Below the pieces are notes generated by a model. It was not told the DNA's origin and ran no database searches. It saw only the letters and a list, made by a program, of their open reading frames with translations. A DNA stretch of 64,000 bases from Octopus vulgaris (Eukaryota): the NCBI GenBank assembly GCA_951406725.2, contig OX597819.1, positions 69,564,001-69,628,000 on the forward strand, read 5' to 3'. Made by a program: the position numbers and the translations under genes. Below are positions 3,366-61,675 of this stretch, piece by piece (positions within the stretch are counted from its first letter, which is position 1; each line of letters starts with the position of its first letter).

Positions 3366-3774
3366 CTTCTTTATATATATTTATAAAGGAGAAATAAACA
3401 TCGGAGATGAAGGAGTTATTCAGGGTCACAAGCGTTTCGCCTCTTCGCTTGTACGCTTCACTTGAGTAGAGCAGCGAGAATTGAGCTTGCCTTAATCATT
3501 ACAACCTTGATTTGTACGTGTACATATACATAAATATATATATATGTTTTTTAACGAAATATTGGCGCAAAGCAGTGTTTAAGTATGAGCAGAATTTAAG
3601 TTAGTTGAAATATGTGGCAAACATATTTCAGGTAACTGAAATTCGGCTCATATGTTTGTCACATATTTCACCTGCTAAAGGCAAGTACACTGCAGTTACC
3701 GCGGAGAAAAAATCTCTCTTATAGTAAAAATGTGTTAAAACACCCAGTTCATTCACTGTTGCCATATCTTAGAA

Positions 3775-3821
3775 ACCTCAGACATCGATGTTTCGAGTTT
3801 GTTGACTCCTGTCAGTGAGAT
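3775..3821 (-). ncRNA. Type I hammerhead-like motif, degenerate core
   Basis: minus: atctca CTGACAG gagt-caacaa-actc GAAA catcgatg TC tgaggt; three stems form, stem III ACATCGATGT is a perfect palindrome, but positions 8/9 are AG rather than GA. Confidence 0.6.
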
Positions 3822-3869
3822 GTATCTACGAGAGACAATTCTGAACGTACTTAATAAAGATGTAGCTTT

Positions 3870-4729
3870 ATATATAATTTGCGTTTTTGTTCGTTTGTTT
3901 CGCCACCAAAATGAAAGTAAATGGTTCAAGGGAAGCTATTACGCGTTTTCTATACCTACTATTAATGCCTAATTTGACTCAACAAAAATTATGCAAAAGT
4001 ACAACGCTAATTGTACACAAACCTATGAGGAAGTGCATTAAGGCAAATATTATCACTGGTTGTGGAAAATATGATACCGTCTTTGTTCCACGCATACCAG
4101 TTATTCCATCAAATGTCCCAATCCAATTTAAGCCGTTACAGTTTCCTATCCCAATTTTTTTTGCCATGAGCATGAAAATATCTCAGGGCCAAACACTAAA
4201 AGTTGCTGGATTGCAGCTTCAAGAACAAACAGAAGTTCGTATATGAAATCCATCTTTTTTCTACTTCAATTATTACATATTTTTCTTTCATATAATACGC
4301 GCATACAGGACAAGTAAACCCAAATCTGTAGTTGCAGTCTCACTCTCGTTCACATTCGAAACTGAATCCTTCAATTTTCCTTGAACATATGGCCTATTCA
4401 AATGTCAAAAGAAACCCCGACAAACGGGTGTCCCACTTCAATTGTGGTGTCTTCAGTTCCATCGCACAATCTATATGTTATAGCTATACTTCAGACTTCA
4501 TTCACGTTCAGAATGAATCTTTCAATTCTCCTTCGGCATACCACCTATTCAAACGTCAAAAAGAACAGTAAAAAATGGATGTTCCACTTGACCTGTAGCC
4601 TTTTCAGTGCCATCGCAGTCAGCAGGATTCCGTAAAGCTATTCTTCTATATGATACACCCATTTTTCTAGTTTCTCGGCTCGAGAAACACTAGAAGTAAT
4701 TTCCCAATCAACGACAGGTATTACTGCTA

Positions 4730-10692: not shown

Positions 10693-11256
10693 AGGCGGCG
10701 AGCTGGCAGAAACGTTAGCACGCCGGGCGAAATGCTGAGCGGTATTTCGTCCGCCGTTACGTTGTGAATTCAAATTCCGCCGAGGTCGATTTTGCCTTTC
10801 ATCCTTTCGGGGTCGACAAATTAAGTACCAGTTACGCACTGAGATCGATATAATCGACTTAATCCGTCTGTCTGTCCTTGTTTGTCTCCTCTGTGTTTAG
10901 CCCCTTGTAGGCAGTAAAGAAATAGGTATTTTGTCTGCCGTTAGCTTCTGAATTCAAATTCCGCCGAAGTCGACTTTCATCCTTTCGGTTTCGAAAAATT
11001 AAGTACCAGTTACTTACTGGGTTCGATATAATCGACTTAATCCGTTTGTCTGTCCTTATTTGTCCTCTCTGTGTTTAGCCCCTTCTGGGTAGTAAAGAAA
11101 TGGGTATTTCGTCTGTCATTACGTTCTGAGTTCAAATTCCGCCGAGGTCGACTTTGCCCTTCATTCGAAAAAGTAAATACTAGTTGCATACAGGGATTGA
11201 TCTAATTAACTGGTCCCCTCAGAAATTTCTGGCCTTGTTCCTAGAGTACAAAAGAA
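10693..11256 (+). mobile_element. SINE family A (Deu/Nin-domain-like), trimeric
   Basis: Head ggcggcgagctggcagaaacgttagc; three successive ttcaaattccgccgaRgtcgaYtt...aagtaccagtt modules; tail cctagagtacaaaagaat. Confidence 0.9.
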
Positions 11257-11378
11257 TAAGTACGTAAACACATATCACAAGGCGTCTTCTCCAATGTATC
11301 ACCAGTTTTTCAACGTAAGTTGGAGACTAAAATATATTTCTGATACATTAACTGATCGAATAAGACAAATATTATATA

Positions 11379-17665: not shown

Positions 17666-18344
17666 AGAAAAAAGAGAAATAAGAAAACAAAAAAACGCTA
17701 AATCATTAGCTCCATGGAGATACCGTTGCCTCGTTCCTCACTTCACTAGCGGCAAGGTGCGGCAAAAAAAACTTGGGAAGTTATCTTGTATTTCAGAATT
17801 TATTTTCTTTGTTTTTATAAATCGGTTTGCGAACTCATTCCCCGATGAGAAATATTTAATTTTGAAATGTATTTTAGAAAGTTGTGTTGATTACTCCATA
17901 AAATGTGAAAACATGATTATCGAAAGATACTTTCTGAATTTCATCAAAATCCAATTTCCGTGTACATAAAGTTAATTCTCAAAAGATAAGTTCTCAAAAT
18001 ATAAACGTGTACTGGAAGGGTAAAATAGAATATATTCGGATCAGATAAAATAATTGTTTTTAATCCCCCCCACCCTAAAACATCCGCTAAAATATTTTAG
18101 AGAAATTATTGCCTCTCTGCTTTCACATAAATATTCAGTTTTATTAAAGCCACAGCGAAACCCATACTCGGACACGATAAGCAGATTGACCACAACACAT
18201 TACCATAATATCTACATCAAAAATATGTTTCTAAAATAGAATAGTATGTAAAATACGGGTCAAAAGTGATTATACCTAGAAACTATTGGACATTTAAAGG
18301 ATAGGAAACCAGTTTTGATATTCCTCTAATACTTTGTCTATTGA

Positions 18345-19082
18345 CGTAAAGTATACTATACATCTCAATATGGCTAACCTCTAGTGTTACAGTAGCTTTT
18401 TAGCCCCAGGAGATCATCGTCTCCAGCTGGCTTTAGACACAATTTCTGTGCACTTATGATATTTGCAAAGGGAGGTCATCCTGCAGTTTCGAGATTATTG
18501 TCTCTCGTCAACACACGCTAATCACCGGTTTTCGATGAGGAGAGACCTGTTTGCGAATATCTATTTAATGTTTTTCCCAGTAACCACTGTCACTGATTTC
18601 GAAAAATGGTCTGAAAGCTACAGTAACACCCACCCCTAGTGGTTAGCCATATTTAGATGGCTAGTATACTTTACGTTGTTGAGCGCTTACTGTTTACATC
18701 ACATTCAGAGATTTATTATTGCTTTCAGACTGTTTTTCGAAATAAGTGACAGTGGATACTGGGAAAAACATTAAATAGATATTCGCAAACAGGTCTCTCC
18801 TTATCGAAAACCGGTGATTAGCGTGTGTTGACAAGAGACAGTAATCTCGAAACTGCAGTCCATGCGTATCACTTAGGTTTTCGAGAGGGGATGACCTCCC
18901 TTTGCAAATATCATAAGCGCACAGAAATTGTGTCTAAAGCCAGCTGGAGACGATAAACTCCTGGGGCTAAAAAGCTACAGTAACACCCACCCCTAGTGGT
19001 TAGCCATATTGAGATAGCTAGTATACTTTACGTTGTCGAGCGCTTACTGTTTACATCTCATTCAGAGATTTATTATTGCTTT
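18345..19082. mobile_element. Retrozyme-like element, 357-bp unit: + arm of ~1.3 units (18614-19082) joined head-to-head with an inverted arm (18345-18618)
   Basis: aaagctacagtaacaccc at 18614 and 18971; long inverted identity; flanking ctttgtctattga (18332-18344) / ctttgcctattga (19079-19091) look like a TSD. Confidence 0.85.
18821..18867 (+). ncRNA. Type I hammerhead, U3-A8 core variant
   Basis: gcgtgtg TTGACAA gaga-cagtaa-tctc GAAA ctgcag TC catgcgt; 7-bp stem I with G-U pairs, palindromic stem III ACTGCAGT, GUC site. Confidence 0.8.
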
Positions 19083-19235
19083 GCCTATTGAGTTTGAATG
19101 CTATTTAAATCAGCTCTGACTTTCATCTATCAATGGTCGATCAAATGAAGTAACAAGGACGTACTTGTGTCGTTGTAATCAGCTACAGCCCTCCACGCAA
19201 AACCACTGGCCTTGTTTAAAACAGAGTCTGTTATT

Positions 19236-19622
19236 CATTTTTACTCTAGGCGCAAGGCCCGAAATTTTGGAGGAGGGACCAGTAGATTAGATCGGCCCCA
19301 GTAGGCAACTGGTACTTAATTTATCGACCCCGAAAGGATGAAAGGCAAAGTCGACCTCGGCGGAATTTGAACTCACAACGTAAAGACAGACGAAATACCT
19401 ATTTCTTTATTACCCACAAGGGGCTAAACACAGAGGGGACAAACAAGGGCAGACATAGGTATTAAGTCGATTACATCGACCCCAGTGCGTAACTGGTACT
19501 TAATTTATCGACCCCGAAAGGATGAAAGTCAAAGTCGACCTCGGCGGAATTTGAACTCACAACGTAACGACAGACGAAATACTGCTAAGCATTTCGCCCG
19601 GCGTGCTAACGTTTCTGCCAGC
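19236..19622 (-). mobile_element. SINE family A dimer with 18-bp TSD
   Basis: Two modules; aaaacagagtctgttatt (19218-19235) and aaaacagaatctgttatt (19625-19642). Confidence 0.9.
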
Positions 19623-20211
19623 ACAAAACAGAATCTGTTATTAGATCGGTAGGAATGTGTTGTTCAACGCACGTACCACACGCGACGCACACGCGCATTC
19701 ACAGCTATACAGGCACATTGACACATACATCCATACTAACAGACACATATGCACACGGGTATAATTATGTGTATATGGATGTATGTACAACTGTAGATAT
19801 GTGTGTGAGTGTGTATGTTTGTGTGTGTATTTGTCTTCCTATATGCACATAGATACATGTATGTATACACACACATATAGACACACACACACACACACAT
19901 TTATTTATGTATGAATGTATACACACCAGCTTTCCATCAATTTTATTTGTACTTACATATGTAATAAGGAATAAAGTGCAGATGTATATGCCCGTTACTC
20001 ATATATATATATACATTCACACACACATACATATAAACACACACATATGTATAAAGTGATCGTGTGATTGGCAAAAATAGAGGACGTTGTTATACATCGC
20101 TGGCCACAATGCCTTTTGCATCGTTTTACACTTCGAATGATGGCACCCCGCTGGCTATGCGATATATGTGTGTGTATGTGTGTACATATATACACACAGA
20201 CACGCAGTTAA

Positions 20212-25560: not shown

Positions 25561-26640
25561 TAGTTTTATTTTTATAGCGTGCTTTCACTTCACTACCGAG
25601 CGCAGCTCTGTGTGCCTTGGGTATGTGCTGTGATTTGTTGTGATGCTCTGATGGTTATTGTATGGAAAGTGTTCTGCGTAGGATGTGTGCAGTGCCTAGT
25701 AGTGCAATTTTCTTTATGTTATATGTATTTGTAAGTCCTGGTGTTTTTGTTATGTATTTGTCTGAATATTTTTAATCATGCCTAATGCACCTACTATGAT
25801 AGGAATTGTTTCTGTTTTCAGATTCCACATTCTAGTTACCTCTATTTCCAGGTCTTTGTATTTTGAATGTTTCTCCATTTCTTTTAGAGACACGTTGTCA
25901 TCTGCCGGTATTGATACATCAATTAGAAAGCATTTTTTTCTTCATGATCTCTGACAACTATATCTGGTCTGTTGGCCTTAATTTCTCTATCTGTGTGCAT
26001 CGGCATATCCCTGAGTATGGTTGCTTTCTCGTTTTCTGTGACCTTTTCTGGTGTGTGCCTATACCATCTTTTTTCTGTTGTTATTCCATAATGTTGGCAT
26101 AGCTTCCAATGTATGTAGGTTCCAACTCTGTCATGTCTGTGAATATATTCCTTCTTAGCCAGGACTGGGCAGCTAGAGATAATATGATTTATTGTTTCTT
26201 GTCCATCTCCACATATTCTGCAGTTACTTGTAATATTTCTTTTCATTACATGTTTTTGGTAATTTCTGGTGGGGAGGCTTTGGTCTTGTGCTGCAATTAA
26301 AAATTCTTCTGTTTCTGCTTTGAGTCCTGAGCTTCTCAACCATTGCTGGGATTTTTCTTTGTCTATTTCTTTTGCGTTTAGTTTAGTCCAGTATTTACCA
26401 TGAAGGGGCTTTTCTTGCCATCGTTTTATCATGGTTCGTTGCTGTTCTATTTTTAGTTTGGATTTCATTTGTTTTATAGCTTTTGTTGTTTCTTCATCTT
26501 CTTCTTCTTCTTCATGTTTATTAGGTGGTATGATTTCTTGTTTGTATTTGTCAGCTTCCTTAAATACTGAGAACAGTTTTTTGTTTTGCTCGTGTTTTGC
26601 CGCTATCTGGATCAGTTTTCCTTCCTTCTGAAGTAGATAT
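25559..26640 (-). mobile_element. R4/Dong-like RLE non-LTR retrotransposon, 5'-truncated, in (TAA)n
   Basis: ORF 25923-26468: KPLHGKY...WL...LKAETE.FLIAAQDQSLPTRNY...CRICGDGQETINHIISSC (CCHC), RHD, NRPDIVV; flanked by (ATT)n. Confidence 0.9.
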
Positions 26641-26686
26641 TTTTGCAGTCCTATGGTGGTTATTTTATAGTAGTTTTCCAGCTGTA

Positions 26687-26797
<111 letters not shown>

Positions 26798-26839
26798 CAT
26801 CATCATCATCATCATCTTCATTATTATCATTATTATTAC

Positions 26840-27720
26840 TGAGTGAAAGAGCATACTGGGTATGATGGAAAGTTTCAGCTGTCTACAACCAGCAAACTAA
26901 GCTGACACCTGTTTACTGGTCATGCTTCAAGAACTCTGCGAAGAATTCTTGCAGTTCCAAGCAATGCTGATTTTTGTAGGTGTTCTACCTTCACAATTGC
27001 ACCAATCTTTCTCTACTATGTTGGTAGTTGAATGCTGATACTTCCAGCTTCACCAATTGCTATTGGCATCATGTCTACTCTCTACATTGATTAGAACCTT
27101 CGTATTTCCCACTTTGAATCGTCAAAGTCGTTAATTTTTCTTCTTTCACGTTGATCCTTTTGTCACTGAGGCATTCTATGTCGATTATCATACCTGTTCT
27201 TTGTTTTTTCTTCACCATAACAATGTACGGTTTCTGATGTATGGGCAGGTAATCGCACTGGATCATTGCATCCCATAGGATTTTACAATTCTTATTTTCG
27301 GTGACTTCTACTGGGGTTTACTGATACAACGTCTTTCCTCATCGTAGGCCGTGATTTCCACACAGTTCCCAATGGATCATTCTTTCCACATTGTCACGGT
27401 GTCTTTCGTATTCGCGTTTTGCCAATTTCGGGCATTCGCTAACGATGTGCCATTCGGTTTCACCCCTCTCACCACACATTCTGCATTCGTTGCTATCCGT
27501 AGTGTTGTCTATTCTGTACTTCATATAACTGGTCCTTAACACTAGTTCCTGAGCTGCGCACATGAGTGCTTCTGTCTCTATCTTCAGGTCATTCCTCCTC
27601 ATCCATAGCCACCGGTCCTCTGCATCTGTCTTGGCGTTCACATCTCTTGCAAGCTGACCATATATTTTCTTTTCTTTGTTCATTTGCTCTTTAAGTTTTT
27701 CGTTTGTTACACAATTTGTT
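26840..27720 (-). mobile_element. Second R4/Dong-like family 3' fragment in (TAA)n
   Basis: WLW...LKIETEALMCAAQE...CRMCGERGETEWHIVSECPKLAKREY..RDNV; frameshifted KPYIV..IIDI; flanked by (ATT)n. Confidence 0.88.
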
Positions 27721-30497: not shown

Positions 30498-31340
30498 AAT
30501 TAAAATTTAAATGAGGGTGAAAAATTGGATAATAATTTGATAACATCAATTTTAACAGCAGTGGTCTAACATATAAAAAAACTGAGGTTCAGTAAATAGT
30601 ATTACATATATATAAGAGGGAATTTACCACCATGTGGAAACCCCTATGCTAGAAGAAGATCCGCTATGGTCTTACCACTAGGAATTGTTCTCTAGAAAAT
30701 TTAGCAAACATAGAAACGTAAGCGAGCAAGACAAATGAAAAGTAACAATTCTTAGTGGTAAGACCATAGCGGATCCTCTTGTAGCATAAGGGTTTCCACA
30801 TAGTGGTAAATCCCCTCTTATATGAATGTTATACCATTTACTGAACCTCAGCTTTTTTTTTATATGCTAGACCACTGCTGTTAAAATTGATGTTATCAAA
30901 TTATTATCCAATTTTTCACCCTCATTTTAATTTTGATTTAAAATTAATACGTTCTCAAACCGGCAAAGACTACTGCAGTGAATTATTTTATGCAGTATTA
31001 TTTCTGGAAAATTTAGCGCGCCAAAACGAAGACTTTTGAAAAATAACCACAAGTGTAATAGGTAGAACTGCATACATTTTCGACCTCGTGTTGATGTCTG
31101 GCGTGTAGTTCTGCAAATTATATTTGTATAGACGATCATACTGAACACCTACAGATAAATTATGTAAGTAAAATTGCGTAATTTGTTGATAGGGAAACAT
31201 TTGTTTATGATTCATCTATATTGTTGTTAATTTCATTTGTCTTGCTCGCTTACGTTTCTGGCGTTTGCTAAATTTACTAGAAAACAATTCTCAGTGGTAA
31301 GACAATAGCGGATTTTCTTCTAGCATAAGGGTTTCCTTCT
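30497..31340. mobile_element. Retrozyme-like element, 539-bp unit: + arm of ~1.1 units (30744-31336) joined head-to-head with an inverted arm (30497-30748), within (TA)n
   Basis: aacaattctYagtggtaagac at 30744 and 31283; ~240-bp inverted copy; hammerhead-like motif on the + arm. Confidence 0.85.
31135..31211 (+). ncRNA. Type I hammerhead-like motif, long stem II, G8C
   Basis: atcata CTGAACA ccta...(aaattatgtaa/ttgcgtaattt)...tagg GAAA catttg TT tatgat. Confidence 0.7.
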
Positions 31341-31346
31341 TATATG

Positions 31347-31473
<127 letters not shown>

Positions 31474-31593
31474 ACAATCAAGGAACGGCCATAATAGGCC
31501 ATTCACCCACTAGAAATAACAGCCAAAGCTTCAACCGCAAATAAAAGTTAATTCTGTAAACCAGGAGAAAATTTAAAAAACATTTACCCTGTA

Positions 31594-31700
31594 ATTTCTT
31601 ATACGATATACCGTTTCATCTGCTGATTAATGGTAAACTAACCTGATTAAATTAAATCAAGCCAATCTTCCACAGGCCCTCAGATTCATCAGTAAGAAAT
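31594..31700 (-). ncRNA. Intact type I hammerhead ribozyme with extended stem II
   Basis: minus: atttctta CTGATGA atctg-[58 nt]-cagat GAAA cggtatatcg TA taagaaat; 8-bp stem I, consensus core, near-palindromic stem III, GUA site, predicted cut between 31602 and 31601. Confidence 0.92.
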
Positions 31701-32191
31701 AGCCCAAGTCGGAACAGATATTTTCACGAGGCATTTCCGACCTTGCCAAGTTTATATCTGACCTAAAATTTTCAAATCGTCGCACTCGCGCCAAATTTAT
31801 CGGCAGCAAATAAATATAAGCCGTCGATTCCATTACGGAATTAACCAGAAAATTCATAATTAATCAATATAGGGTGGCAAAAAAATTTTGTAGAATTCTT
31901 TTGCCACCAGCGGCCTAGTAGGAAAAAATTAAATAGTCATAGACCATTTTTAAGTTTAACATCAACAATCAAGGAACGGCCATAATAGGTCATTCACCCA
32001 CTAGAAATAACAGCCAAAGCTTCAACCGCAAATAAAAGTTAATTCTGTAAACCAGGAGAAAATTTAAAAAACATTTACCCTGTAATTTCTTATAAATTTG
32101 GCGCGAGTGCGACGATTTGAAAATTTTAGGTCAGATATAAACTTGGCAAGGTCGGAAATGCCTCGTGAAAATATCTGTTCCGACTTGGGCT

Positions 32192-32298
32192 ATTTCTTAC
32201 TGATGAATCTGAGGGCCTGTGGAAGATTGGCTTGATTTAATTTAATCAGGTTAGTTTACCATTAATCAGCAGATGAAACGGTATATCTTATAAGAAAT
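32192..32298 (+). ncRNA. Second copy of the same hammerhead with one stem III substitution
   Basis: As above but ...tatatcTTA instead of tatatcGTA. Confidence 0.85.
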
Positions 32299-32520
32299 TA
32301 CAGGGTAAATGTTTTTTAAATTTTCTCCTGGTTTACAGAATTAACTTTTATTTGCGGTTGAAGCTTTGGCTGTTATTTCTAGTGGGTGAATGGCCTATTA
32401 TGGCCGTTCCTTGATTGTTGATGCTAAACTTAAAAATGGTCTATGACTATTTAATTTTTTCCTACTAGGCCGCTGGTGGCAAAAGAATTCTACAAAATTT
32501 TTTTGCCACCCTATATTGAT

Positions 32521-32607
<87 letters not shown>

Positions 32608-38313: not shown

Positions 38314-38968
38314 CGGTTCTGTTAATGGCTAGGCGTTCAGGCGAGTATACTGGCACTGATGTAGCAACATTCAAAATTTTGTCCCGGCGTATCTAGCTGA
38401 GGATGACTAAAGAAATTTATGTTAACAAACGTAATTTGGAGAGTTCTAAAGCTAGGTCCTAGATGATCCACATCTGGAATGTACATTTATCTAATGTTCT
38501 TCCTACAGGTAATATGAATATTTTTAATGTTCGCAGCCCGCAAACATCTTTGCGAGTATATATATATATATATACAGTCAGGCTTTACTACAGCGTCATA
38601 TATTATCGACTGTTATTTTCAGTAAAGATTGGTGCATTGTTGTACCACAATTCTAGATTTGTACCCTAAACTTATGGTGCTTTGTTTTATTGAAAAGCAG
38701 TACTATCGTATTGCACTATTTAAAAATTTTTTCACTGTTCTCGGTTATGTTAAAAGAGAGCATATTGGCACTGATGTAGCAGTGTCCAAAACTTTGCCTC
38801 CGATAAATCTAGCTGAGTGGAGCTAACCAAATTTACGTTAAAAAACGTATCTTGGAGAGCTTTAATACTAGGTCCTAGATTATCCACATCTGGGGTGTAC
38901 ATTTATCTAATGTTCTTCCTACAGGTAAAATTATTTTTCCATGTTCGCCGACCGGAAACATCTTTGCC
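38314..38968 (+). mobile_element. Retrozyme-like partial tandem, 416-bp unit, ~1.5 copies, with decayed hammerheads at 38391-38464 and 38807-38880
   Basis: atctag CTGAGGA ... long hairpin ... TAAA gctagg TC ctagat in copy 1; same layout in copy 2; another family member at 1-105. Confidence 0.72.
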
Positions 38969-38969
38969 A

Positions 38970-39039
<70 letters not shown>

Positions 39040-40764: not shown

Positions 40765-43457
40765 TTGTTGTTGACATCCTTGTTGTCTCGGGAGACAATG
40801 GAGTTGCGCATAAAATAATCTAGTCCAGCTTTTACATTTCATGCCCTAATACATCTCCTGCTGTGGCTATGTAGTCCTATCATGGACGAACATTCCCTCT
40901 GGCAGGTGCCGCAAATGTAGCGAAGACATTGCCTGGCTGGTTGTAATGTCATAGTTTCTTGTTGACGTCTTTTCTTGTCTTTCCATTTCTCCTTTCTCTC
41001 TATGTAACTTCTTTGTGTTCCCTCTTTTACGGTACGTCGCCAATCTCCACGGTTGCTGGCAAATGCTTCCCAGTTGGTAATATTGATGTTCCAGGCATTC
41101 ATGTCCCTTTTGCAAACGTCCTTGTATCGTAAGAACGGTCTTCCCACAGACCTAGTGCCCCTAGCAAGCTCTCCGTTGAGTATGTCCTTGGGGATTCTGC
41201 CATCTTCCATACGGCTAACATGTCCAAGTCATCTCATACGTCTCTGTGTGAGGAGTGCAAACATGCTTGGTATTCCTGCTTGCTTGAGGACATCTTTGTT
41301 GGGGACATGATTCTGCGATTTGATGCGAAGGATTTTCTGGAGGCAGCGCAGGTGAAAGATATTTAGGCGACGTATGGCGTCGTATGGCGTGTGTATGGCG
41401 TCCAAGTCTCACTTCCATACAGTAGAGTACTAAGTACACATGCCTGGTAAATCTTCATTTTTGTGGTCTTGGTCAGCTTATTGTTGTCCCATGTCCGTTT
41501 GGAGAGTTGGGCCATCACAGCAGCTGCCTTGCCAAGCGTATATTGAGCTCAGCATCAAGGGATAGGTTGTAGGTGACGGTAGAGCCAAGATAGGTAAACC
41601 TCTCCACCTCCTGTAGTCTGTGGTCTCCAATATGTATGTTTGGGATGTCCGATGTAACCTGACCCATGATGTTGGTCTTCTTGAGGCTGATAACCAAGCC
41701 AAAGTTGCCACATGCTTGCTCAAAACAGTTGATGAGCCTTTGTAGGGCTTCTTCTGTGTGTGATACCAGAGCGGCAACATCAGCAAATAGCATCTCCTTG
41801 ATCAGGACACTTCTGATTTTGGTCTTGGCACGCAGACGCGAGAGATTGAACAGTCTCCCATCACTTCTACTGTGCAGAAACAACCCATGATCTGATGTCT
41901 CAAAGGCATGTGACGGCAGCAGCGAGAAGATGACAAATAATGTAGGAGCAAGGACACAACCTTGCTTTATCCCGATTTTTATTTGGAAGCCGGCTGATGT
42001 TGAACCATTGTGTTGTATGGTGCCTTGCATATCATCATTGAAAGATTTGATGATCCTCAGCAGCTTTGGTGGACATCCGATTTTTTGGAGCAGGATGAAG
42101 AGGCATTTTCTACTTACCAAGTCAAAGGCCTTTGTCAGATCAATGAAGGCCATATATAATGGCATTTTCGGCTCTCTGGACTTCTCTTGAAGTTGGTGTA
42201 TGGAGAATATCATGTCAATAGTTGATCTGCTTCTTCTAAAGCGACAGTGCGATTCAAGATAAATTCGAGAAGCAAGCAGTTGTAGCCTGGACAGGATAAT
42301 GCCAGCAGAGGCCTTTCCAACAGTGCTTAGAAGAGATATTCCACGGTAATTGTTACGATCACCACGGTCACCTTTGATTTGTAAAGCGTAATGATGCTAG
42401 CATCCCGCATATCCTGAGGGACTGTACCCTCTTCCCAGCACTGACACAGAAGCTCATGAATGTGCCGAAGCAGGATGGTGTTTTTGCCGGTTTTGATGAT
42501 CTCTAAGGGTATGCCGTTTTTTCCCGGAGCCTTGTAACTCGCTAGGGAGTCAATAGACTTGGTGAGCTCTGCTATAGATGGCAGACTGTCAAGTTTACAC
42601 ATGACTTGCAAGATCTTGACACCCTCGATTGCAGCCTCAGCTACCGTGGTCTCTCGTCAGTACAGATCCTGGTTGTACTCTACCCATGTATCCATTTTCT
42701 TGCTTTGGTCCTTGATGAGATCCCCAGTAGTTGATTTCAGAGGGGCTGGCTTGGTTCCGGATGGACCGAGGGCCTTCTTTAAACCGGCATACATCCCACG
42801 GGTGTCGCCACTGTCAGCAGCTGACTGGATACTCTGACAGATTTCCTGTCAATAACTATTTGCACAGCGTCTGGCCGTCAGTTGGGTTTCATTTCTTGCC
42901 TTTCTGAGTTCTTCGTGTGACCTTGTTGAAGAATCACTCTTGTATTGCATCGGAGCTGCACGTTTTGCTTCGATAATTGTTTCCATCTCTGAGAGCCCAG
43001 CACTGAACAAAATCTGAGTTTTGCCTTTCTCTCATGCCGAAAGTATCAATTGATGTGGTATACAAAGCTTACCTGATATAATTCCACCTACTTTCAGCAG
43101 AGGAGGTTGGGCAGCTACTGAGGGCACCGTGATAGAAACAGCAAAACATTGTCGCAGTGTAGGGTCCGAGGTTCTGCCAGTGTGAATGCGTATTTGACCC
43201 ATTTTCTTGGAGTGATGGACATTTATAGGCAGAATCCTCACCCTGCTTCTTATTAGTGAATATGTATCACAATCCACGCTGTGGTAACTACGGATCAGAT
43301 GAGATCCAGCTGATGCCAGTGATGGGATCTTGGATGTCTCCAAAATGTCTTGTGGGATGTTTTGTTGGCAAAGAATGTGTTGGTGATGCGCGGGTTATGG
43401 TATGTGCAAAATTCAAGTAGTCTGTGACCATTGTCATTCATGTTGCCAATGCCAAAA
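40765..43457 (-). mobile_element. RTE-clade LINE, 5'-truncated, frameshifted (APE endonuclease end + RT + C-terminus)
   Basis: GNMNDNGHRLLEFC...NTFF..K..HKTFWRHPRSHHWHQLDLI; KAPG.NGIP.E; YMAFIDLTKAFDLVSR; GIKQGCVLAPTLF; EMLFAD; MEDGRIPKDILNGEL..G.RSVGRP.LRYKD; CxxC..HSR; 3' ccattgtctcccgagac..(caa)n. Confidence 0.95.
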
Positions 43458-46837: not shown

Positions 46838-47596
46838 TAATTAAGGGTATAGAAAAATGCTTGCCTATTTGCCGATAGGAGAGGCTAAATCGTTGAATCA
46901 CATTAACTACCATCACTATTAATGTTACATGCGTGCCGGAAATCGAGGGAGCAAGCTAACGGAAATTGATGAAATTAAGTTATCTGCGAATTTCTGGATT
47001 AACACAAAGGGTTTTACCTTTGTCACCAGAGAATACTGAAGAAATACTTATACACACGCACAGATAAGCAGACGCCATGTCATAAATGCATATAAGTACC
47101 CCTGATATATCCACCGCGAATTCCAAAGCAGGCCCCGACACATGTGTAGCCGGTCAAGAATAGCACATAAGTGGCTAGACTGTGCCGAAGTTAATGGGAA
47201 TCAGCTTAATTACAATATTAGTGGCCAGCATATATAAAGATAGAACTAATAAGGTGAAATCATAAACACAATTGCAATTAAAGGCAAAAAAAAAATTTCT
47301 TGACTATATACTGAAGGGAGGCGCTATGGGTATGTATAAGTATTTCATTTATTTCGGAAGTATTCACTGCTGACGAAGGTAAAACCTTTACGATAATCCT
47401 GAAATTGATCGATCCAGAAATAGCTCACGTTTATGAATCTACGTTAGCTTGCCCCCTCGGATATTTAATATTGTTCGACGATTTAGCGTATCCTTTCAGC
47501 ATATAGGCAAGTGTATCTGCTATGCCCTTCATTATAATTTTATTTATGACTTCACCTTAATAGTTCTATTTTTTTATATGCTGGCCACTGATAAAA
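46838..47596. mobile_element. Older retrozyme-like element, ~438-bp unit: - arm (47285 to 46838) head-to-head with + arm (~47290-47596)
   Basis: aattaagggtatag (~46839) / aattaaaggca (~47277); diverged inverted matches (gcaagctaacg/cgttagcttgc, gtggccagcata/tatgctggccac). Confidence 0.7.
47367..47417 (+). ncRNA. Type I hammerhead, consensus core
   Basis: ctg CTGACGA agg-[18 nt]-cct GAAA ttgatcga TC cag; near-palindromic ATTGATCGAT, AUC site; stems I and II are short. Confidence 0.72.
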
Positions 47597-60547: not shown

Positions 60548-60677
60548 ATATAATGTTCTTAAGCAAGAAGGTTGGTGACAGTGACTTCGAAATTTCGACC
60601 AGTTAAGCCATCGTCGGTTGGCTTAACTCGCTGAAACATCGAAGTCACTGTCATAATCCTGTTTAAGAATATTTTGT
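60548..60677. mobile_element. Small head-to-head element of two 5'-truncated hammerheads
   Basis: - arm: CCGACGA tggc-ttaact-ggtc GAAA tttcgaag TC actgtc; + arm: tggc-ttaact-cgct GAAA catcgaag TC actgtc. Confidence 0.72.
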
Positions 60678-60679
60678 GC

Positions 60680-61395
60680 GCAGCATAAGAACAGGTATTA
60701 CGAACTAATAATGTTAAGTGCAGAATCAACAACACTACAGACAGCTATGAATGCAGGGTATGTGGTGAGAGATGTGAAACGGTATGGCACATCGTTAACA
60801 AATTCCCGAAATTGGCACAACGCGAATACGAAAGACGTGACAATGTGTCAAAAATGACCTATTGGAGGCTCTGTTTAAATCACGGCCTAAAAAGAGCAAG
60901 GACGTGATATGAACAAACTCCAGAAAAGTCACCGAGAACGAAGATTGCAAACTCCTCTGGGACGCAATGATTCAGTACGAAAACCTGACCTGACATCAGA
61001 AACCAGACGTTGTTGTGGTGAATAAAAAAGAAAGGACATGTATGATAAAAGACATAGCATGCTGCGGTGACAATATCAAACAGAAAAAGAAGAAACTGAA
61101 CAGCTGCGAGGATTTGAAGTGGAAAATACGAAGGCTGTGGTCAATGAGGGGAGTAGACGTGATAGCAATAATAATTGGTGCACTTGGTGGAATCAGTACT
61201 CAACTACCAACATGCCTGAAAAAGATTGGTGCAAGTGTGAAAGTAGAACACCTACAAATATCAGTGTTGCTTGGAACTGCAAAAATTCTTTGCAGGGTTC
61301 TTCAAGAATGACCAGTAAACAAAGCTTACCTTAGTCTGCTGGCTGTGGATAGCCAAGACTTTCCAGAAAAGTAAGCAGTGATTATTTTTATGAAC
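60680..61395 (+). mobile_element. R4/Dong-like LINE 3' fragment (family of 26840-27720) ending in (TAA)n
   Basis: EQVLRTN...ECRVCGERCETVWHIV; HQKPDVVVVNKKERTCMIKDIAC; IIIGALGGI..QISVLLGTAKIL; (TAA)n at 61397-61545. Confidence 0.85.
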
Positions 61396-61424
61396 TAATA
61401 ATAATAATAATAATAATAATAATG

Positions 61425-61536
<112 letters not shown>

Positions 61537-61675
61537 TAGTAACAAAAAAGTTTAACTAGTAGCCATAGACTTTTACCTATTCTTCACAACAAACCGAGGT
61601 AATCTGGTTTACAGGGAATTCCATTCACACACAAGCCGATACACGTGCACTGACACACACACACGCACACACACA

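Follow-up and report, generated by a model that had tools for sequence, protein, structure and literature searches.

Positions 18332 to 19091 of a 64-kb window of Octopus vulgaris DNA (the whole stretch that was analysed, 64,000 nucleotides of contig OX597819.1) hold an inverted composite of a short non-coding repeat. One of its two arms lacks a stretch of 31 nt beginning almost exactly where a hammerhead ribozyme, as predicted in the other arm, would cut its RNA. Two questions follow: what machinery put such a repeat in place, and does the missing stretch record cleavage of the RNA from which the repeat was copied? A Penelope-type layout is the main explanation of the locus. Taken as a whole, the best account is probably a single insertion of a non-coding hammerhead repeat, likely made in trans by the reverse transcriptase-endonuclease of a Penelope-like element (PLE).

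Layout of the insertion

Two 13-mers, CTTTGTCTATTGA (18332-18344) and CTTTGCCTATTGA (19079-19091), bound the composite as a direct repeat with 12 of 13 positions matching, just as a sequence-only reading of this DNA had reported (13 bp, one mismatch, around the whole inverted composite). Such a match is reached by 3 of 12,916 random pairs of sites in the window when low-complexity sequence is set aside and a slip of up to 5 nt is allowed at each end, and by 90 of 19,961 when simple repeats are included. The first four letters of the 13-mer (CTTT) also continue the element, whose internal copy reads ...ATTGCTTT-CAGAC, and its final A is common to the duplication and the left arm. The target-site duplication is therefore 8-13 bp long with microhomology at both junctions, and its unambiguous part is 8 bp; the left copy (18332..18344, plus strand) shares its last base with the left arm, and the right copy (19079..19091, plus strand) shares its first four bases with the end of the tail.

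Between these copies lie two arms of unequal length. The short inverted arm (18344..18618, minus strand) is one unit without its tail; it corresponds to unit positions 18721-19033, carries gaps of 31 nt and 7 nt, and differs from the right unit by 15 substitutions in 275 aligned columns. It meets the long arm at a head-to-head junction (18614..18618) marked by a 5-nt microhomology, AAAGC on the plus strand and GCTTT on the minus strand. The long arm (plus strand, 18614-19082) consists of 1.31 tandem units: a pseudo-LTR-like partial upstream unit of 112 nt (18614..18725), then a full unit of 357 nt (18726..19082, 41.5% G+C). With this period, 18614-18725 and 18971-19082 are identical at 108 of 112 positions. 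The tail (19034..19082, plus strand; 45-49 nt) is present at the right end only. The smaller of the two gaps, at 18986..18992 on the plus strand, removes 7 nt of a C-rich short repeat from the left arm and looks like slippage. The 357-nt unit is structured, whether folded as a linear (z -4.3) or as a circular (z -3.4) molecule. The earlier description of a "357-bp element" thus holds for the unit and its period and not for the insertion, which measures ~740 bp overall. The accompanying proposal of a single insertion event is borne out by the target duplication, the single junction and the similar divergence of the copies (15/275, 4/112).

The ends of the two arms are related to one another. 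The 5' end of the short arm (unit position 18721-18725) coincides with the 3' end of the long arm (19078-19082), and both arms, when laid on a head-to-tail multimer, form one contiguous stretch of 777 nt (2.18 units); two such 5-nt arm-end intervals would overlap by chance with a probability of ~0.025. In the 63 columns that are covered three times, the left arm has four private substitutions and a gap, and the other copies have one substitution each. This excess of private changes would fit a different template molecule for the left arm, with numbers too small to decide.

A Penelope-type insertion that yields this layout would begin with staggered nicks 8-13 bp apart in the target. Each target strand would prime a cDNA, one at unit position 19033 and the other 45-49 nt further 3' (19078-19082), and two start sites this far apart would leave a tail at one end only. 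The first cDNA would extend for just under one unit and stop where the second had been primed on the preceding unit. The template would be a multimeric or circular RNA, along which the second cDNA would run for 1.31 units. Annealing of the two cDNA ends across 5 nt would then produce the head-to-head junction, and gap filling would create the target duplication. We observe the junctions themselves; the steps that would connect them we infer.

The element encodes nothing recognisable. Its longest stop-free frame is 79 aa, none of its frames matches a Pfam family, and it contains no ORF for a PLE-type reverse transcriptase (RT) or a GIY-YIG domain. Neither domain was found among 131 scanned frames of the 64-kb window, in which the sole RT match has named relatives of LINE type. 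No further copy of the element occurs within the window, where the only other match is one of 25 nt at chance level (E 0.15). Its degenerate ribozyme pattern has no match in bacterial or archaeal genomes, the element has none in phages and plasmids, and four short motifs have none in one supplementary file of PMC8557442.

Other repeats are plentiful in the window. The RT match lies in a 293-aa frame at 41518-42396 (minus strand; PF00078, E 1e-25, LINE-type), with relatives in animals at 53-69% identity, those with names coming from fish, snail, lamprey and sea cucumber at 58-66%. Fragments of zf-RVT (PF13966), together with an 879-nt repeat pair at 79% identity, occur at 25926-27719 and 60675-61545, and are likely to be the 3' parts of a LINE. 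An interspersed repeat that is abundant in the window, and within which 184 nt are duplicated, occupies 19232-19625, with copies near 10700-11260, 12350, 16200, 23010, 32860, 36170, 49300, 53410, 57260 and 58330; it may resemble an octopus SINE. Degenerate sequence at 4000-4220 may, by eye, resemble a Helitron at its helicase end, and 3878-4243 has no Pfam match. Two-copy direct repeats are found at 38343-38988 (234 nt, 82% identity) and 697-1310 (~300 nt, 78%).

The predicted hammerhead and its core

The right unit contains a predicted type I hammerhead (18821..18867, plus strand) with its cut predicted after C18860. The boxes of the type (CUGANGA, GAAA, NUH), the three helices and the open helix I are all present. 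Helix I has 7 bp and helix II 4 bp with a 6-nt loop; GAAA lies at 18849-18852; helix III has 2 bp with the palindromic 8-mer ACUGCAGU; and GUC occupies 18858-18860. The core, U3-U4-G5-A6-C7-A8-A9 at 18828-18834, departs from the canonical boxes at two positions, with U3 for C3 and A8 for G8. An extended helix I of 45 pairs is predicted across 18778..18912 (plus strand), and would keep the two cleavage products together. The region 18785-18905 folds better than its shuffles (z -6.4, 0/200), and the self-duplex of helix III has a computed energy of -11.1 kcal/mol. The monomer is predicted to reach its lowest energy (-59.3 kcal/mol) in a fold other than the active one, which, when imposed as a constraint, lies 6.8 kcal/mol higher at -52.5 kcal/mol. 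Hammerhead motifs of this kind are reported to need dimers (PMC4209133), and a predicted active fold above the monomer minimum is as expected for them. Modelled anatomy and folding together support a type I hammerhead in the right unit. In the left arm the motif is broken (18481..18518, minus strand): its core is U3-G8 (TTGACGA) and helices II and III are present; the deletion, with its junction at 18481, has removed U16.1, C17 and, from the 3' strand of helix I, the first 29 nt.

Pattern scans recovered the right-unit hammerhead, and one such scan also gave one match on 2 of 6 shuffled strands; a stricter helix I rule missed it because helix I carries G-U pairs. Rfam hammerhead models have no match at gathering score anywhere in the window, and 18200-19700 searched at E up to 10 gave five Rfam matches, none of them a hammerhead. 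Rfam matches to MIR6217 and bicoid score far under the gathering threshold and are artefacts of hairpins formed by the inverted repeat.

Both arms have U at core position 3, as first read: TTGACAA at 18828-18834 on the plus strand (right arm, U3-A8) and TTGACGA at 18511-18505 on the minus strand (left arm, U3-G8). U3 was therefore most likely present in the template. The accompanying suggestion of covariation between positions 3 and 8 is not supported: U3-G8, in the second arm, is not a Watson-Crick covariation. A third suggestion, that A8 could be simple CpG decay, finds a somewhat enriched set of CpG-type changes in its favour and, set against it, an inherited A8 that is about as likely; whether the template had A or G at position 8 is about even. 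With the site under test left out, CpG-type changes make up 4 of the 18 other substitutions between the copies, a number that simulation with no CpG effect reaches with P 0.024-0.095 (~0.02-0.10). The raw excess of 11-fold is inflated by the classing of sites and becomes 4.3-fold (P 0.10) when one site is removed. Decay of G8 is favoured by this enrichment and by two decayed motifs elsewhere in the window that have A8 without U3. Inherited A8 is favoured by the Watson-Crick match of U3 with A8, by the more numerous private changes of the left arm, and by a CpG excess of only ~1.9-fold in the window's other repeat pairs. Repeats of the window may resemble those of octopus, and if they do, the reported absence of methylation from octopus transposons (PMC9476566) argues against CpG decay of G8.

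Even if inherited, the core variant is not new, since U3-A8 is already published in PLEs: it is a natural hammerhead core variant, reported active in vitro (PMC3088659), and such cores account for ~1,300 matches in Schistosoma PLEs (PMC4209133). The right unit shares U3 with A8 both with the Schistosoma Cercyon PLEs (PMC4209133) and with the other natural U3-A8 cores (PMC3088659). Schistosoma hammerheads also occur, as here, in opposite-strand pairs, 100-700 bp apart (PMC4209133). The likeness to Cercyon is one of description, and the second copy here differs in having G8, so the U3-A8 pair may be a product of decay. Our literature search found no publication that combines "C3U" with "G8A".

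Companion elements and breaks beside the predicted cut

With the insertion at 18332-19091 counted as element 1, the window contains further elements of related design. Element 2 (31470-32527) is inverted and partly tandem with a period of 491, and lies between (TA)n tracts. It is young (~1% diverged) and has a predicted type I hammerhead of the C3-G8 kind, with cores at 32200 on the plus strand and 31692 on the minus strand. In its short arm 55 nt of the unit are missing, and its long arm has its 5' end at the predicted cut, within a microhomology of 3 nt (32092-32094). A 29-nt stretch of this element has no match in bacterial or archaeal genomes. Element 3 (30498-31345) has a layout like that of element 2, is older, and has a period of 539; it carries a decayed hammerhead (core at 31141 on the plus strand, cut predicted after 31205) and a 5-nt junction microhomology, and its nearest arm end is 15 nt from the cut. 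In sequence, elements 1-3 have unrelated units, whose alignments score no higher than the shuffle means and which are consequently unusable as a consensus. Elements 2 and 3 do not repeat the contiguity of arms found in element 1, and this counts against the proposed mechanism; each of their long arms has a (TA)n tract at its end and may be truncated, in which case it would offer no fair test of contiguity. Element 4 (46860-47593) is an old inverted structure of three pieces, 73-80% identical, in which a weak motif of hammerhead-like form (C3-G8) occupies 47370-47414 on the plus strand. Its inverted copy has A at position 8 without U at position 3, a precedent for the decay of G8 to A, and ~8 nt are missing near the cut in an ambiguous alignment. 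An isolated, decayed hammerhead-like motif at 3773-3823 (minus strand) combines C3 with A8 and has a helix III that is a perfect palindrome.

The gap in the left arm of element 1 corresponds to 18859..18889 on the plus strand (or 18858-18888, one G being shared). It comprises 31 nt, starts 2-3 nt before the predicted cut, and has a single nucleotide of microhomology at its bounds. Alignment of the arms bears out the original observation, a left arm lacking 31 nt from a point 2 nt before the cut after C18860. That the deletion is anchored at the cut agrees with its proximal end, 2 nt away, and with the element 2 arm that starts on the cut, but not with its distal end, which is 28 nt away, inside predicted helix I and at no landmark. 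A gap equal to the whole 3' strand of helix I, as from a stall at the base of the helix, was considered and rejected: with the helix predicted to extend as far as 18912, the distal break falls within it.

The sequence-only reading had proposed the frequency of deletions at the cut as a check. Across elements 1-3, two of nine breakpoints lie within 3 nt of a predicted cut, which stands as an excess only post hoc (P ~0.02; 0.023). In the independent part of the data (elements 2 and 3) the figure is one of four (P ~0.09; 0.088), and in element 1 by itself at least one of five (chance P ~0.14). These counts leave out four gaps of element 3, one of 18 nt and three of 1-3 nt, the addition of which would weaken P, and they exclude element 4, whose alignment (73-80% identity) shifts with gap costs. 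The link between breakpoints and cut is suggestive only. Modest support comes from the arm of element 2, an element of another family that had no part in framing the idea.

If the gap arose during insertion, the template would have been a self-cleaved RNA whose pieces were held together by the long helix I, and the enzyme would have left the 3' cleavage product in a jump to the 5' one, landing on its free 3' end. We take such a jump across already cleaved RNA as the likeliest origin, at slightly short of an even chance; a later deletion in the DNA is a plausible origin that we rate somewhat below even, and inheritance of the gap from the donor copy is unlikely. A rival account of the locus, which in our judgement also comes close to an even chance, accepts the same Penelope-type insertion, makes the 31-nt gap a later DNA deletion (or one already in the donor), and ascribes its closeness to the cut to chance. 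This reading gains from the state of the left arm, which has the slippage-like 7-nt gap and more private changes as well, from the single nucleotide of microhomology that bounds the 31-nt gap, and from the within-element figure of one breakpoint in five. Long inverted repeats are, moreover, unstable, and microhomology-mediated deletions are described in many Penelope copies (PMC3846280). The counts that draw on other families, two of nine and one of four, speak against closeness by chance. In vitro evidence points away from a role of the cut: hammerhead mutants left PLE insertion unaffected, and RNA-seq reads ending there were absent (PMC11167929). We found no published account of insertion breakpoints at a hammerhead cut, in a literature that was mostly non-subscription and is weak evidence of absence.

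Penelope-like elements, retrozymes and the RNA template

PLEs are described as acting in trans and as leaving, on insertion, two direct pLTRs and one inverted pLTR, a target-site duplication of 8-10 bp, an overlap at the inverted junction and, on one side only, a tail of 31 bp (PMC3846280, PMC8557442); published tails measure 30-40 bp. Purified PLE protein is reported to nick and extend both target strands, and to start at two RNA sites, which delimit the tail (PMC11167929). With the endonuclease-bearing (EN+) PLEs of these accounts (Penelope/Poseidon, Neptune, Naiad; PMC3846280, PMC8557442, PMC11167929) the locus shares the partial tandem with an inverted head-to-head copy, the short junction overlap, a one-sided, tail-like extension 3' of the hammerhead and the target duplication (8-13 bp here). 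It differs from them in having no RT/GIY-YIG frame, in its tail of 45-49 nt rather than the 30-40 published, and in a ribozyme of canonical rather than minimal form (the PLE form as described in PMC4209133).

In its unit, the locus resembles a different class. For mollusc (mussel) retrozymes, a unit size of 350-390 bp is reported and mobilisation by PLEs has been proposed (PMC7229834), and metazoan non-LTR retrozymes in general are proposed to be non-autonomous PLE derivatives (PMC7229834; bioRxiv 10.64898/2026.07.22.740005). Common to those retrozymes, as described in the same two sources, and to the locus are a non-coding unit (357 nt here) with G+C below 45%, a canonical type I hammerhead, a short palindromic helix III, a self-structured unit and a duplication of more than 4 bp. 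The unit, at 357 nt and 41.5% G+C, lies within the range used for non-LTR retrozymes (non-coding, ~150-450 nt, low G+C, type I hammerhead). The rule for an active retrozyme also asks for at least two consecutive units, each with a complete hammerhead, and the locus has 1.31 units and one intact ribozyme. Its inverted arm and tail are a further difference, both being absent from the main texts of the retrozyme papers (PMC7229834; bioRxiv 10.64898/2026.07.22.740005). In the mostly non-subscription literature searched, which is weak evidence of absence, no paper describes a unit of retrozyme type that carries both the tail and the inversion of a PLE; supplements to the retrozyme and PLE-hammerhead papers may already show inverted copies or U3 cores. 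The locus works like a PLE-mobilised copy of retrozyme type, being neither an "active retrozyme" by the rule of two complete units nor an autonomous PLE.

The template need not have been a multimer or circle. A possible, rather doubtful alternative has it as a short linear transcript from the pseudo-LTR of an autonomous PLE, starting near 18726. On the same tentative footing, both cDNAs would have reached the 5' end of the RNA, and the partial tandem would result from a switch to another RNA molecule. A common start at 18721-18726 for the short arm and the full unit favours this account, as do the single intact ribozyme and the reported start of PLE transcription in the pLTR, with partial tandems typical (PMC8557442). 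A helix II of 4 bp with a helix III of 2 bp is, however, the tandem-repeat (retrozyme) form and not the minimal PLE one (PMC4209133), and the size and G+C of the unit likewise fit retrozymes. A single locus cannot separate a linear pLTR transcript from a multimeric or circular template.

A DNA transposon of foldback or MITE type, carrying long inverted repeats at its termini and flanked by a target duplication of 8 bp, is a very improbable source of the locus: the 275-bp inverted arms and the 8 bp of unambiguous duplication would suit it, but 45-49 nt of non-inverted tail separate the end of the right arm from the duplication, so that the arms are not both terminal, and an internal direct period of 357 nt and a hammerhead are present besides. 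The chance that the structure is an assembly or library chimera (a fold-back read) is negligible, long inverted repeats being a known class of artefact but the arms here differing at 15 of 275 columns and by two gaps, with a target duplication flanking the whole. The Penelope-type insertion also has a parallel in LINE-1 twin priming, in which two primers on one RNA produce an inverted segment with junction microhomology from a contiguous template. All four features would be shared by the octopus locus; it differs in having no poly(A) end, in its internal priming sites and in the use of a repeat unit as template.

Taken alone, the locus is a repeat of ordinary kind in decay, and the U3 core is either known or decayed; only the breaks beside the predicted cut are possibly new. 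What the locus presents is a retrozyme-type unit with a full Penelope insertion footprint, one of three or four such elements in 64 kb, and it touches two open questions, by which machinery the retrozymes of animals are moved and what part the hammerhead plays in the cycle of Penelope elements. The link between PLEs and retrozymes has so far rested on co-occurrence and pLTR phylogeny (bioRxiv 10.64898/2026.07.22.740005; PMC7229834), and the sole in vitro study found cleavage dispensable (PMC11167929). We raise, tentatively and as something that may well prove wrong, the idea that repeats of retrozyme type are inserted in vivo by Penelope machinery from hammerhead-cleaved RNA, with arm ends and deletions marking the cut. 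If this is true, the gap at 18859-18889 would be a jump over a nicked RNA held together by its helix, and the arm of element 2 a cDNA that ran off at a cleaved 5' end. The two would then be evidence, at the level of junctions, for a partnership of PLEs and retrozymes and for a role of cleavage that was not seen in vitro.
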